Positions 14,144-59,330 of a stretch of DNA of 64,000 bases are shown one piece after another. Made by a program: the position numbers and the translations under genes. The DNA is taken from IMG/VR virus record IMGVR_UViG_3300028608_000008, positions 60,246-124,245 of that record; one strand, given 5' to 3'. The notes beneath the pieces were generated by a model. The model was not told the origin of the DNA and ran no database searches. It saw nothing but the letters and a program-made list of their open reading frames with translations. Every line of letters begins with the position of its first letter. The stretch's first letter is position 1. This DNA comes from a virus.

Positions 14144-14260
14144 AAACCTCCCTTAGTCCGTAAGGGTAAGTCATTTCAAACCGAAGACGGCTATGGGATA
14201 ATGTCAATACTGGGGAGAAGCCTAGCCCGGAACATTACACTTACGAGTTAGAGGAAGTTT
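14144..14260 (+). promoter_or_regulatory. IR-flanked promoter cassette 1
   Basis: Left arm aaacctcccttagtccgtaag (14144-14164); TGgGATAAT (-10 at 14197-14202); right arm cttacgagttagaggaagttt (14240-14260). Confidence 0.75.
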
Positions 14261-14264
14261 GAGC

Positions 14265-14567
14265 ATGAGCAAGAAGCCGAGCGTTTACATTGACCACACC
14301 GCCGACGAATTGTTTGTAGATTGCGCCGACGATTTAACCTACCGCGTTTCGGACCTGATCGAATCGCTGGTTGAAGACGGGTTCTGTCCGAGAAGCGCAG
14401 CGCTAGTTGATGCCGCGTGGGAATGGTCGAAACTTTGGGAAAGCGCGCACGACACAACCGGCACGCTGACCGCGCAATACCGAATCAACAGCGGGTTCTT
14501 CCACTGCGCGCAACCGTCACAGCGCACAATCGAACGCCGCGCAATCGCTGCATACTTCGGCGGGTAA
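14265..14567 (+). CDS. Hypothetical protein, first gene after IR-promoter cassette 1
   Basis: GAGG RBS lies within the cassette right arm. Confidence 0.75.
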   Translation: MSKKPSVYIDHTADELFVDCADDLTYRVSDLIESLVEDGFCPRSAALVDAAWEWSKLWESAHDTTGTLTAQYRINSGFFHCAQPSQRTIERRAIAAYFGG

Positions 14568-14642
14568 ACATTCGCCACGGGGCTTCGGCCCCGACTCAAA
14601 CTCGTAAACTGCAAACAATTCAGATTTTTCGGAACTCATATC

Positions 14643-14786
14643 ATGTACGCCACTCAAGTAAAAACCAAGAAAGTCGCTGCAACAAAATCGTGGGAATGGG
14701 ACGCTGTGTTTGTGCAGGCTGATTCTGCGCACCAGAAAAAAGTGCAGGATGCCCAGCGCCGTTTCCGCAACGCAATCACCCGCTAA
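14643..14786 (+). CDS. Small hypothetical protein (47 aa, not in ORF track)
   Basis: MYATQVKTKK...NAITR read by eye. Confidence 0.55.
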   Translation: MYATQVKTKKVAATKSWEWDAVFVQADSAHQKKVQDAQRRFRNAITR

Positions 14787-14807
14787 CTGTTTGGAAAACT
14801 GACCATG
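14783..14807 (+). repeat. 25-bp direct repeat, copy 1
   Basis: ctaactgtttggaaaactgaccatg. Confidence 0.9.
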
Positions 14808-15029
14808 CCTGACCAAAAACCGACCTGCCCATTCAGCACGCACATTTACCACTGCGATGATCCACGTTACGACGGAATGTGCGTTAACGGTGAATTGCTG
14901 GAAGAAGAATTCCCCGGCCAAGGTGTTTACGTGTGGTACAACGAAAACGGTGATGCTTTGGGTCGCGCTCGTATCGACGGCGCCAAAGCGTTTAAGGGCC
15001 AGTACGTCACCCCGATTGTTCGCGACTAA
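14805..15029 (+). CDS. Hypothetical protein flanked by 25-bp direct repeats
   Basis: 74-aa Cys/His-containing ORF. Confidence 0.7.
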   Translation: MPDQKPTCPFSTHIYHCDDPRYDGMCVNGELLEEEFPGQGVYVWYNENGDALGRARIDGAKAFKGQYVTPIVRD

Positions 15030-15050
15030 CTGTTTGGAAAACTGACCATG
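15026..15050 (+). repeat. 25-bp direct repeat, copy 2
   Basis: Identical ctaactgtttggaaaactgaccatg. Confidence 0.9.
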
Positions 15051-15296
15051 ATTATTCTGACCATCCTCCTTTGGGCCGTTATTGTTTACCTGTTGCTGGG
15101 CTGCGCTGTTGTCAGCCTCGCTGTTTGGTTCTGGTACAAGACCGAGCGTGAAAGCGTCGAGTACCAATTCGACTGGTTGAAAAATGCCAGTTGGAAAATG
15201 CGTGGGGCCGCTGTTTTGTTGGCCGTGTGGTACGGCGTCATTTGCTGGTTGCCGATTGCGGCAGGCTGGATGACTCGCCCAACTAAATTCCGCTAA
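15048..15296 (+). CDS. Small membrane protein
   Basis: Two hydrophobic segments. Confidence 0.7.
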   Translation: MIILTILLWAVIVYLLLGCAVVSLAVWFWYKTERESVEYQFDWLKNASWKMRGAAVLLAVWYGVICWLPIAAGWMTRPTKFR

Positions 15297-15330
15297 CTGC
15301 AAACATTTCGATTCGACAAGGAGCCACACA

Positions 15331-56742: not shown

Positions 56743-56769
56743 CCTTTTTCGTTTACAAGGAATTTCCTA

Positions 56770-58161
56770 ATGCGTTGTGAATACCACAATATCGGTTTCA
56801 GCCTGAATGAAACCATGATGGCGGAACTGCCATACACCCAAGCGCTGTATCGCCACGAACCGAAAAACGGTCAAGCGGCTGCTGACGCCGATTTCCAACA
56901 AGACGTGAAAGACTATTTCGCGTTCCCGCTGGCCCACTCCGAAAACATGCCGGTTTACGAACTGGGTATCAGTGCGTGCGCTGAAATCGAAACCGTTTTC
57001 GAACTGTCGTATGCCATGCTGGTTGAAGCGCTGGGCAAACTGTTTGCTCGCGGCAATGCGACCGTGCTGGAATACATGGGCTGCAACTTCCTGCGCAAAC
57101 ATCCGAGTTTCATCGACTACGCGAAGTTTACCTATCACGATTCCGGTTCGGCGCGCCAGTCCATCTACGGCCGTTTCGACGCCGTGTTCAATCCGGAAAC
57201 CGATAAGGTCGAAGGCATTTACGAATTCAACGGCGACACGCCGACCATGCTTTTCGAATCGGCGCTGTTGCAGAATCAAATCTGCGAACGCATTACCGGC
57301 GACGGCGAAATGCAGTTGAACAGCTTCTACCCGCTGCTGACTTCGCTTTTCGAAAACATGGGCGAAGTGCCGGGCAAGGTCGGCATCATCTGCGACAACA
57401 ATTCGTTTGAAGACGTGGCGACCTGTGAAGTTCTGGCGCAGGTTATCGGTGACGAATGCGGAAACGAAATCCGTTACGTCGATACCACCGAAATCGACTT
57501 CGACTACAACAATAAACACAATCCGTTCTGCGCGGGCGACGATCACTTCGCGGTAATGTTTGCGTTGGTGCCGTGGGAAGAAATCATCGAATCGTTTTCC
57601 AAACACTGCCCGCAGGCGATGGAAAAGTGGCAAGACTGGGCGGGTCACGTCACCTTCTTGGAACCGGCGTGGCGCTGGTTTATCAGCAACAAAGGCATTT
57701 GGGCATTCGTGACCCACTTGTTTGAAACCGACGAAGATTTCAAACTTCGTTACGCGGAAGTTCCGTTGCTGCCGACCTACCTGTCGCAAGATCGTTTCAT
57801 CGAGAAAGGCGAGCCGTTTGTTGGCAAACCGAAAATCGGCCGTATGTCCAACAACATCGAAATCTTCAAAGCGGATGGTTCGCATGAGTTTTCGACCGAT
57901 GGCGCATACGCTGGCGACGACCGCGTGTTTCAAATGTACGCGGAACCGTTCAAGGTAAACGGTCGCCACAATTTCATCATCGGCATGTTTATGGTGCCGG
58001 ATGAAGCCACCAACTACAACACCATGCGCAATGCTACGGCTGCAACGCTGTGCATTCGCGAATTCGATTCGCCGGTACTGGGCATCTGCAATGAGCGTTT
58101 CATTCCGCACATTCTGATCGAAGACGGCGAAGACGTTGACGGCGAGGAAGACTTCGAATGA
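56770..58161 (+). CDS. Glutathionylspermidine synthase-family ATP-grasp ligase (YgiC/YjfC-like)
   Basis: IYGRFD, YEFNGDTPTMLFESA, LEPAWRW.ISNKGIWA, LLPTY and KPKIGRMSNNI motifs. Confidence 0.9.
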   Translation: MRCEYHNIGFSLNETMMAELPYTQALYRHEPKNGQAAADADFQQDVKDYFAFPLAHSENMPVYELGISACAEIETVFELSYAMLVEALGKLFARGNATVLEYMGCNFLRKHPSFIDYAKFTYHDSGSARQSIYGRFDAVFNPETDKVEGIYEFNGDTPTMLFESALLQNQICERITGDGEMQLNSFYPLLTSLFENMGEVPGKVGIICDNNSFEDVATCEVLAQVIGDECGNEIRYVDTTEIDFDYNNKHNPFCAGDDHFAVMFALVPWEEIIESFSKHCPQAMEKWQDWAGHVTFLEPAWRWFISNKGIWAFVTHLFETDEDFKLRYAEVPLLPTYLSQDRFIEKGEPFVGKPKIGRMSNNIEIFKADGSHEFSTDGAYAGDDRVFQMYAEPFKVNGRHNFIIGMFMVPDEATNYNTMRNATAATLCIREFDSPVLGICNERFIPHILIEDGEDVDGEEDFE

Positions 58162-58418
58162 TTTACAAAATGCTGGTTGTGCTGCTGTTGGCGTGGGTCG
58201 CATTCGGCGTCTACTTTTCGTGGAACTCCGGCCGCACGCTGGTGTTCAAAAACAAAAAGTGGGAATACTTCGCCGCGTTCATCATCGGGCTGGGCGTTGC
58301 CTTGGCGATGTTGTGGCAAGGTGTCGAAAAGTTTTTCACCAAACTGGCCGATACCGCTACCGATCTGCAAAAGCGGTTCGAATCGCGTGATGCAGCGAAA
58401 AAGGAATCGGGCCAATGA
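58158..58418 (+). CDS. Small membrane protein
   Basis: Two TM segments; coupled to the ATP-grasp gene. Confidence 0.7.
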   Translation: MIYKMLVVLLLAWVAFGVYFSWNSGRTLVFKNKKWEYFAAFIIGLGVALAMLWQGVEKFFTKLADTATDLQKRFESRDAAKKESGQ

Positions 58419-58861
58419 GGCCCCTTTCCCTCAAAGTCGATACCGCGTTGTTGCGGGCCATCGTTGAGTCCAATCCGGAACTGATGTTGGAAATCGGAAC
58501 CGCTGTGCAGAAAAACATTTCCGACGACGTTGTGAAAGTTGCGATCATGGAAAAGTTGAAAGCACAACTTGACCAGATTGCCGCATTCGCTGACGGTTGG
58601 AATCGACGTGGCTCCATGATTAATCCGTTCCACAACAGTCCGCTGCATGACTTGTTGAAACGATTAATCAACGCGCAAATCGAGCAGGCGACCGAGGAAC
58701 TGATTATCGAATCGGTCACGCCGGTTATCGACAAAGTGTTTGCATCGAAACTGGAAGCGTTCCAAGAACAGATTGATTCGACAATCGCCGCGTCGTTCAC
58801 TCCGGAACACATTCAGGAACAGATGAACAAACGCATGGCAGAAATGTTTGCAAAGGGGTAG
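58415..58861 (+). CDS. Hypothetical helical protein
   Basis: ORF track. Confidence 0.75.
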   Translation: MRPLSLKVDTALLRAIVESNPELMLEIGTAVQKNISDDVVKVAIMEKLKAQLDQIAAFADGWNRRGSMINPFHNSPLHDLLKRLINAQIEQATEELIIESVTPVIDKVFASKLEAFQEQIDSTIAASFTPEHIQEQMNKRMAEMFAKG

Positions 58862-58864
58862 CGC

Positions 58865-59158
58865 ATGAACATTTGCGATATGGTGGAAGCTCGCGACAAG
58901 GCGTGCGCATTGCTTGTCGAGAAATTTCCGAAAGACGCCATTCTGGTTCAACGCAAAATGGACGAACGCACGCAACACCCGGAAGCGCGGATTTCGAGTC
59001 CGGACAATTCGGGCGCGGCGCTTTGGTTTCGCGTGAAGCAAAATGGTTTTACCGTGACCTCTGGTTTGGGAGCAACGTCGCAGGCTTGGCGGGATACCGT
59101 GACCGAGTTTCTGACTCCGCTTTACCAGTTTGATGCAAACAGTTTGACCGAGCAGTAA
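58865..59158 (+). CDS. Hypothetical protein
   Basis: AAGGGG RBS. Confidence 0.7.
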   Translation: MNICDMVEARDKACALLVEKFPKDAILVQRKMDERTQHPEARISSPDNSGAALWFRVKQNGFTVTSGLGATSQAWRDTVTEFLTPLYQFDANSLTEQ

Positions 59159-59164
59159 CGCAAT

Positions 59165-59209
59165 GGAATGCCCCGCCTGATTAGTTTCCGGTGGGGCATT
59201 TCCGTTTTT
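59165..59209 (+). terminator. Probable intrinsic terminator upstream of cassette 5
   Basis: ggaatgccccgcc...ggtggggcatttcc followed by gttttt. Confidence 0.65.
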
Positions 59210-59217
59210 GGCGCTGG

Positions 59218-59330
59218 AAACCTCCAGTAAGCCGTAAGGGTAGCCAGTTGCCATCATGTGCCACTGTGGTACAATGAACACGTTGGGAGACTGTGCCCAC
59301 GTTTTTACGCTTACGACTTAACGGAAGTTT
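59218..59330 (+). promoter_or_regulatory. IR-flanked promoter cassette 5
   Basis: Left aaacctccagtaagccgtaag; TTGCCA-16-TACAAT with TG (59248-59275); right cttacgacttaacggaagttt (17/21). Confidence 0.8.

Follow-up and report, generated by a model that had tools for sequence, protein, structure and literature searches.

A promoter cassette bracketed by inverted boxes in a Lu11/PaBG-like jumbo phage lineage, with a tentative reading of the boxes as paired operators

Introduction

Why should five promoters of one phage each lie between two inverted copies of the same short box? The question is raised by a stretch of 64,000 nucleotides (nt) of viral DNA (hereafter the window), the last 64 kb of the 124-kb IMG/VR record IMGVR_UViG_3300028608_000008 (record positions 60,246 to 124,245; completeness 44% by CheckV), in which an original prediction, made from the letters alone, had placed five dispersed cassettes, each with a promoter between two inverted-repeat arms. 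We located all five in the window at the predicted positions, and the predicted arm-to-arm gaps of 75, 74, 75, 75 and 71 base pairs (bp) for elements 1 to 5 were confirmed. The bracketed cassette is a real control element and apparently an undescribed one. As to what the arms do, we tentatively favor, at somewhat less than an even chance, an operator pair for one regulator, with a strong proximal site and an auxiliary distal site in a geometry resembling that of the gal loop.

Transcription control is poorly known in jumbo phages that use the host polymerase, and no transcriptome or promoter study of the Lu11/PaBG group was found in the literature searched. The original prediction had been offered with the remark that no described element with this geometry was known; in the same literature the box, the hairpin and the bracketing arms were indeed all undescribed.

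Results

The phage and its relatives

The source of the window is an uncultured Lu11/PaBG-like jumbo phage. Its baseplate hub protein shows 40-51% identity to the counterparts in the Pseudomonas phages PaBG, HRDY3 and Lu11, a jumbo group in which a sigma-70-like factor is encoded (PMC7412058). All genes of the window are carried on the plus strand; tail and baseplate genes occupy its first 14 kb, and the remainder is an ORFan-rich region. A DNA similarity search of 50,697 phage records gave no match to the window, and a scan of the window with Rfam 15 gave no family at the gathering score. An exact-pattern scan led to a complete relative of 274,896 bp (G001), which together with a third phage (G002) belongs to the same clade as the window's phage (G000). 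The proteins of G000 and G001 are mostly 40-80% identical. Nine paired cassettes were found in G001: five are orthologous to those of the window and stand in colinear order, and the four further ones lie in a rightward-transcribed region that is absent from the window's fragment. G002 adds two cassettes. When the arm pattern was run against collections of metagenomes and prokaryote genomes, only one more contig of the G002 phage and chance matches turned up, and thus the arm is not a host operator.

Anatomy of the cassette

Each of the five window cassettes forms a unit of 111-115 bp in the order distal arm, promoter, hairpin, proximal arm, ribosome-binding site and ATG. The distal arm follows the pattern AAC-n-TCC-nn-TA-nn-(C/T)CGTAAG, with the consensus AACnTCCnnTAnnCCGTAAGnGTAA; the proximal arm follows the pattern (A)ACA-CTTACGACTTA-nn-GGAAGTT and, taken as the reverse complement, reads AAACTTCCnCTAAGTCGTAAGTGTnA. 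The arms had been described as a 21-bp inverted-repeat pair; the pair stands, and its length is about 26 bp when the flanks are included. Together with their flanks the arms hold three 6-7-bp TAAG-type repeats. They are unequal, the proximal arm being near-invariant and the distal arm matching its partner at 13-18 of 20 positions.

A 16-nt arm pattern matched the window 14 times, compared with 2.45 matches expected and 8 in the richest shuffle, and 10 of these 14 matches are the five pairs. The rest of the 124-kb record holds no additional arm copy. A search for paired versus solo sites, which had been proposed as a check, revealed no solo arms elsewhere in the genomes, the other weak matches all lying within coding sequence, and the arms are confined to these promoters.

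Past the distal arm comes a variable stretch that contains a poor -35 element, and in every one of the 13 ordinary cassettes 31-32 bp separate the end of this arm from the -10 hexamer. In each of the five window elements a TGn motif and a -10 hexamer with 5 of 6 matches were present at this distance, as predicted. The hairpin-bearing interval between the -10 and the proximal arm is less constant, with lengths of 34 to 39 bp. The arms lie at about -64 to -44 and +29 to +53, and their dyad centre falls at the 3' end of the -10 hexamer. The centre-to-centre distances of the arms are 84, 94 and 128 bp, equal to 8.0, 8.95 and 12.2 helical turns; this near-integer spacing, in three classes only, is suggestive of sites on the same face of the helix. 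The inner sequence had been called largely unrelated between copies. It is indeed otherwise non-homologous, but the copies share a constant position of the promoter and a significant hairpin where the transcript starts. Elements 1 and 5 are preceded by strong terminator hairpins, as fold energies and z-scores demonstrated for both.

Promoter class and transcript-start hairpin

A generic promoter scan detected the promoters of three of the five window cassettes, and promoter scans gave no leftward second promoter inside the cassette. Among the promoters of the distal-arm clade, TG is present in 12 of 14 and the mean -35 match is 3.6 of 6. Promoters with TGn and a 5/6 -10 hexamer are normally active without a -35 element or an activator, and the weak-35, extended -10 type found in this clade is independent of -35 contact.

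A different motif, AACTGTAAAC, occurs in short intergenic gaps at window positions 5881-5892, 7965-7976, 8191-8202 and 19773-19784. Three of these sites precede tail or baseplate genes, and 7 matches were found versus 1.8 expected. This motif resembles CTGTAAATAGTATGTA, which is annotated in Lu11 as a putative middle/late promoter, and it also flanks the cassette G001_165603. Because the motif in front of structural genes matches the putative middle/late promoter of Lu11, we assign the cassettes to the early promoter class read by the host polymerase. In the complete relative neither a multisubunit nor a T7-type RNA polymerase was found, and only a sigma-like gene was detected; PF00940 (single-subunit RNA polymerase) was unmatched there, a result with no positive control since the control genomes lack the family too.

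Four other identities of the arms were tried and rejected. A phage middle/late promoter was ruled out, since promoters of that class are marked by another motif (CTGTAAATAG). TACGACT is common to the arm and the T7 promoter, but the TATA initiation region is missing from the arm, and the search for a single-subunit polymerase gene found none. For a promoter of an extracytoplasmic-function sigma factor (AAC...CGT), the spacer, judged by eye, is 11 nt instead of 16-17. Finally, a 9-nt complementarity of the arm to 16S ribosomal RNA (AAGUCGUAA) has an estimated chance expectation of ~0.14 and was treated as chance because the match is lost in the Lu11-type box.

When the first 30 transcribed nt of 32 cassettes were folded and compared with shuffled sequences, the mean z was -1.8 (z < -1 in 23 of 32; t-test p = 2e-7), and the hairpin stem starts 0-3 nt from the predicted transcript start. 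The hairpins were folded per sequence; RNAalifold on ungapped leader alignments did not recover the 5' hairpin, as its position differs by 1-2 nt from copy to copy. In the 5'-end-dependent mRNA decay of Escherichia coli, a 5'-terminal stem-loop stabilises the mRNA, and by analogy the cassette hairpin may be an mRNA stabiliser.

Conservation and origin

The original prediction had named absence of the arms from related phages as evidence that would speak against it. In G001 the arms are kept at the orthologous positions of all five window cassettes. Between these orthologs the proximal arm keeps 16-20 of 20 bases, the -10 region is kept, and the distal arm keeps its core positions AAC, T5, TA and CGTAAG; the hairpin changes in sequence, but its stem stays.

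In Lu11, in HRDY3 and in several IMG/VR contigs of ~300 kb, the same cassette is made up of TTGACN, a spacer of 17 bp, a -10, a hairpin and a box of the form ACACTCAC(G/A)-N7/8-GGAAGTT, with the ATG 3-7 nt downstream. A TTGACA-N17-TATAAT-like promoter is annotated in the Lu11 record NC_017972 at 276430-276456, inside a homologous cassette; across ~54 kb of this record such sites are annotated as promoters only, and the hairpin, leader box and inverted arm are unannotated. The majority of the Lu11/HRDY3-type copies are without a distal arm, which makes the proximal box the older part. The cassette downstream of a RecA/UvsX-like gene, however, is paired in both clades, with a gap that measures 63-66 bp in the Lu11 clade. 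In G001 and G002 the gap is 107-109 bp, and the distal arm is separated from the promoter by a terminator hairpin. From the -10, the distal arm of the RecA-locus cassettes is 24 or 64-65 bp away. PaBG has a promoter at this locus and lacks the box. Judged from these sequences, the bracketed form was ancestral at this one locus, and its spread has since reached all cassettes of the G000/G001 clade.

Two further repeats were observed. A 14-mer, CTAAGT(C/G)NTTGATT, is conserved in both clades within the RecA-locus cassettes, where it stands after the distal arm and before the -10 (L110 at about 4620-4640; loci L113-L136) and may be a further binding site. Palindromic repeats, GCGCACGCGTA(TAGAGG), lie 50-100 bp upstream of several Lu11-type cassettes (Lu11 L053 at about 100-200 on the minus strand; HRDY3 L081, cassettes at 263871, 270251 and 276285); they form a second repeat family, which is absent from the window's phage.

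DNA site or RNA stem

Inverted arms can be read as two DNA sites or as the two strands of an RNA stem. Cognate arms form 15.4 Watson-Crick pairs versus 15.2 for non-cognate ones, paired cells amount to 81.3% versus 80.3% in shuffles (91 of 500 shuffles were as high), and the arm covariation score is 0.070 versus 0.066. Covariation tests in subgroups were also non-significant, with no cognate pairing excess within groups. Wobble pairs show no strand bias (14 versus 21). A cognate-pairing excess at the RecA locus was discounted, because it amounts to ~2 matched substitutions in related genomes. Strong terminators precede 6 of 14 cassettes and no terminator precedes the other 8; in those six the distal arms persist, in a position where they would rarely be transcribed.

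Discussion

The arms as paired operators

The lack of arm covariation, the fixed 31-32 bp to the -10 and the helical spacings led us to favor paired operators. Under this explanation, each cassette is an early promoter read by the host sigma-70 RNA polymerase, and the two inverted, asymmetric boxes of ~26 bp, placed just outside the polymerase footprint with their dyad on the -10, would serve as operators of a single DNA-binding factor with sequence specificity, probably encoded by the phage. Its primary, strong site would be the near-invariant proximal box, while the degenerate distal box would be an auxiliary site for cooperative binding, probably by looping of ~94 bp of promoter DNA. All early operons could then be switched off together, and transcription arriving from upstream would also be blocked; the putative function of the cassette would be the coordinated shut-off and insulation of early operons. 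It had been proposed from the outset that one protein binds twice at each promoter. The arms are two copies of one consensus and the spacing fits this proposal, but the search for a protein that binds the box gave none; to speak of a regulon is justified, in that dispersed promoters share one cis-element. A broader version, in which a single factor clamps all early promoters between two ~26-bp sites as a gal-loop-like regulon, and in which the box may act as DNA upstream and as RNA of the 5' untranslated region (5' UTR) downstream, linking shut-off, insulation and mRNA control, strikes us as conceivable, with the greater weight on the side of doubt.

Several observations weigh against the paired operators. 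First, the phasing argument is limited to three spacing classes, and asymmetric sites built of 6-7-bp repeats are unusual for classical dimeric operators. Second, the position of the proximal box is within the 5' UTR, and the box of Lu11 and HRDY3 contains the Shine-Dalgarno sequence, 3-7 nt ahead of the ATG, as would suit an operator acting at the level of RNA. Third, when the whole element was folded as RNA, cassettes without an upstream terminator gave z values between -2 and -6, and the arms were paired in six of seven, whereas those behind a terminator gave -0.1 to -3.0 with arm pairing mostly poor or absent (mean about -4.1 versus -1.2; p = 0.005 per cassette, 0.016 per locus), and the distal arms are nearer the consensus where no terminator precedes. 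Fourth, Pfam searches over 88 early open reading frames (ORFs) revealed only two helix-turn-helix (HTH) proteins of the HTH_3 type and no firm box-binding protein, and tblastn at 1e-5 found no homolog of either in PaBG or in Lu11 and HRDY3, both of which carry the box. The terminator-linked fold difference reflects better distal arms and not cognate matching, and a DNA-bound roadblock against read-through transcription would explain the association with terminators equally well.

Both HTH_3-type proteins are weak candidate regulators (Table 1). The one of 306 residues (17679-18599) has an ortholog in G001. The 306- and 310-residue proteins have a common layout, with the HTH segment at residues ~242-283, and no detectable mutual similarity. 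In G001, 23 proteins are common to Lu11 and HRDY3 and absent from PaBG; eight small ones among them gave no DNA-binding family at relaxed cut-offs. The best-conserved small candidate for a box-binding protein was rejected, being a membrane protein. At 52926-53216 the window encodes a hydrophobic membrane protein of 96 residues that is unusually conserved (73% identity to G001, 53-56% to Lu11/HRDY3).

Alternative explanations

The reading that survives best beside the paired operators is an RNA-level element, which we regard as unlikely overall; it was absent from the original prediction and is kept alive by the terminator-linked quality of the distal arms. The proximal box would be a 5'-UTR leader or operator of the early mRNAs, and the distal arm would be its antisense partner. 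Only read-through transcripts from the upstream operon would carry both arms, whose irregular duplex of ~20 bp would enclose the internal promoter; the duplex could hide the leader or be processed by RNase III, so that read-through and promoter-initiated mRNAs would meet different fates. Such an element would agree with a proximal arm that is always transcribed and that holds the Shine-Dalgarno sequence in the cultured relatives, and with the concentration of arm pairing in the terminator-less cassettes. In addition, the free NN positions are paired in 10 of 14 cells versus 3 of 12 (Fisher p = 0.047); 15 of 16 copies have at distal position 12 an A or a G, either of which pairs with the invariant U; and position 13 changes from G-C to C-G between two orthologs, W2, which has no terminator before it (z -4.5), and G001_49643, which has one (z -1.0). 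However, the cognate pairing excess is absent both overall and within groups, a plus-strand wobble bias is lacking, and the arm cores survive behind strong terminators; at the RecA locus a terminator even separates the arms. An RNA stem gives no reason for the strict 31-32 bp that separate the distal arm and the -10, a distal arm and a terminator are both missing from many internal Lu11 and HRDY3 cassettes, and the arms are unpaired in the minimum-energy fold of three cassettes.

We consider it improbable that the distal arm, with the adjacent TAAG unit (-64 to -37), binds a phage activator that replaces the weak -35 contact. By analogy with the sigma appropriation of T4 MotA/AsiA, the cassettes would then be delayed-early or middle promoters, and the proximal box a separate, older leader. 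The constant 31-32 bp would suit such an activator, as would the distribution of -35 elements, which are degenerate exactly in the distal-arm clade and mostly TTGACN in the arm-less cassettes of Lu11 and HRDY3. However, promoters with TGn and a 5/6 -10 normally need neither a -35 nor an activator, the arm at the RecA locus stands at other distances from the -10, and the scenario gives no reason for the two boxes, upstream and downstream, to be inverted copies of each other.

Comparably poor prospects are given to recombination modules, that is, units like the promoter-early stem-loop (PeSL) cassettes whose conserved ends would serve mainly as homology for modular gene shuffling, or would be scars of spread, without any regulator. 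The distal arm must have spread among at least 8 promoters by whole-cassette copying, the surrounding region is ORFan-rich and hyperplastic, and for 3 of the 5 orthologous cassettes the relative lacks a homolog of the first gene downstream. Since ~35% of the genes in the region are without a homolog (estimated binomial p about 0.24), these 3 of 5 are no clear excess. In addition, all five cassettes are positionally conserved, and neutral scars would not remain 80-100% identical while proteins are about 50% identical.

An invertible promoter switch or a miniature inverted-repeat transposable element, both suggested by a promoter flanked by inverted repeats, has scarcely any credit with us: none of 27 cassettes is inverted, as the 15 clade cassettes and the 12 paired RecA-locus ones all point the promoter to the well-conserved arm and the genes; the spacer of 71-76 bp is very short for inversion; no cognate recombinase was found, the complete relative being without a resolvase or invertase (no PF00239) and showing only a sub-threshold tyrosine-recombinase match (PF00589, 19 bits); the flanks show no target-site duplication by eye; the interiors are non-homologous between copies beyond the promoter and hairpin features; and the copies are fixed at orthologous sites, all five being orthologous in G001.

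Significance

The cassette marks the whole early regulon of one phage lineage and thereby gives a ready map of its early operons. It is also a compact natural expression unit of a strong promoter, a putative stabilising 5' hairpin and a leader. If there is a factor that binds the box, it would represent a new global switch for early gene expression in phages. Since both Lu11 (host Pseudomonas putida) and HRDY3 have been cultured and share the box, ordinary experiments can decide between DNA, RNA or a combination of the two.

Coordinates and neighbouring genes

The coordinates of the cassette parts, of the two terminators and of the candidate regulators are given in Table 1.

Table 1. Features of the five cassettes and candidate regulator genes (window positions)
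Feature	Position	Strand	Remarks
Intrinsic terminator before cassette 1	14084-14121	+	11-bp stem, T-rich tail; -21 kcal/mol, z -3.5
Cassette 1 distal arm	14145-14170	+	core 14145-14164 plus GGTAAG extension
Cassette 1 extended -10, TGG GATAAT	14194-14202	+	
Cassette 1 hairpin at predicted transcript start	14210-14230	+	
Cassette 1 proximal arm	14234-14259	+	core 14240-14259; gene ATG 14265
Candidate regulator (weak), 306 residues	17679-18599	+	C-terminal HTH_3/HTH_31-like segment, 18-20 bits, below the Pfam cut-off
Cassette 2 distal arm	18598-18623	+	core 18598-18617; contains stop codon of HTH-domain gene 17679-18599
Cassette 2 extended -10, TGC TATCAT	18647-18655	+	
Cassette 2 hairpin at transcript start	18662-18683	+	z -4.2
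Cassette 2 proximal arm	18686-18711	+	core 18692-18711; gene ATG 18764
Cassette 3 distal arm	25190-25215	+	core 25190-25209
Cassette 3 extended -10, TGG TATATT	25238-25246	+	
Cassette 3 hairpin at transcript start	25253-25277	+	kept in ortholog G001_43423
Cassette 3 proximal arm	25279-25304	+	core 25285-25304; gene ATG 25324
Cassette 4 distal arm	41465-41490	+	core 41465-41484; best partner match, 18 Watson-Crick pairs plus 1 wobble of 20
Cassette 4 extended -10, TGG GATAAT	41514-41522	+	
Cassette 4 hairpin at transcript start	41529-41554	+	stem kept though sequence differs from that of the ortholog
Cassette 4 proximal arm	41554-41579	+	core 41560-41579; gene ATG 41594
Intrinsic terminator before cassette 5	59162-59210	+	-28 kcal/mol, z -4.4, then U-run
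Cassette 5 distal arm	59219-59244	+	core 59219-59238
Cassette 5 promoter, TTGCCA, 16-bp spacer, TGG TACAAT	59248-59275	+	10/12 with TG; top promoter match in 20-kb scan
Cassette 5 hairpin at transcript start	59280-59302	+	compensatory change relative to G001_13593
Cassette 5 proximal arm	59304-59329	+	core 59310-59329; gene ATG 59346
Candidate regulator (weak), 310 residues	62505-63437	+	C-terminal HTH_3 domain, 32.6 bits (cut-off 23)

The long leader of cassette 2 contains an upstream ORF of 11 codons (18732-18767), whose stop overlaps the start of the gene for a 338-residue protein (ATGA). The operon of cassette 3 includes a gene for an 80-residue zinc-finger protein of the TraR/DksA type (26650-26892), directly followed by one for a protein of 669 residues with a PP-binding (acyl-carrier-like) domain (26892-28901). 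Among the few well-conserved genes of the early region is one for a glutathionylspermidine-synthase-like protein (56770-58161; GSP_synth, E 3e-44), which is 58-66% identical to the counterparts in Lu11 and HRDY3. The early genes also include an RlaP-type nucleotidyltransferase (47119-47934) and a NUDIX hydrolase (60078-60494), both with homologs in Lu11, HRDY3 and PaBG.

Comparison with known systems

The original prediction had drawn an analogy with the PeSL cassettes of T4-type phages (PMC2839356, PMC4122927). Both are short repeated cassettes that combine a strong sigma-70-like early promoter with a stem-loop, both are dispersed in an ORFan-rich early region, and some copies of both stand after terminators. 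However, PeSLs have neither flanking inverted boxes nor a conserved leader box. The stem-loop of a PeSL is a terminator, whereas the hairpin of the present cassette is a structure of the 5' transcript end, located past the start and without a U-tail. A role of PeSLs in insertions and deletions is documented (PMC2839356, PMC4122927), whereas our cassettes show no clear excess of homolog-less downstream genes. The phage lineage of the PeSLs is unrelated to the window's phage. The analogy is good as a concept and does not extend beyond it.

For an RNA duplex between the arms, the nearest counterparts are the early RNase III sites of T7 and the sib element of lambda, where an irregular duplex of ~20 bp likewise exists only in transcripts of a certain extent and the fate of the mRNA depends on the promoter. 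Unlike these, the cassette would enclose a loop of 71-109 nt with an active promoter, and what is conserved in its arms is sequence, not pairing.

The C1 regulon of phage P1 is built on an asymmetric operator of ~17 bp at many dispersed promoters, with some inverted pairs and with looping reported. The likeness lies in one putative regulator with asymmetric sites at dispersed promoters, some of them in inverted pairs. The operator sequences are unrelated, however, P1 is temperate, and its operators overlap the promoters instead of bracketing them at about -54 and +41.

The closest geometry is that of the gal repression loop of E. coli, in which GalR binds at OE (-60.5) and OI (+53.5) with the help of HU, together with the auxiliary-operator logic of lac O1/O3. 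In the cassettes, too, two sites for one putative factor stand on either side of the polymerase footprint, at about -54 and +41, their separation is near whole helical turns, and one site is strong and the other weak. Unlike the gal operators, the cassette sites are not two palindromes but asymmetric boxes of ~26 bp that are mutually inverted, and their arrangement recurs at 9-10 promoters of one phage.

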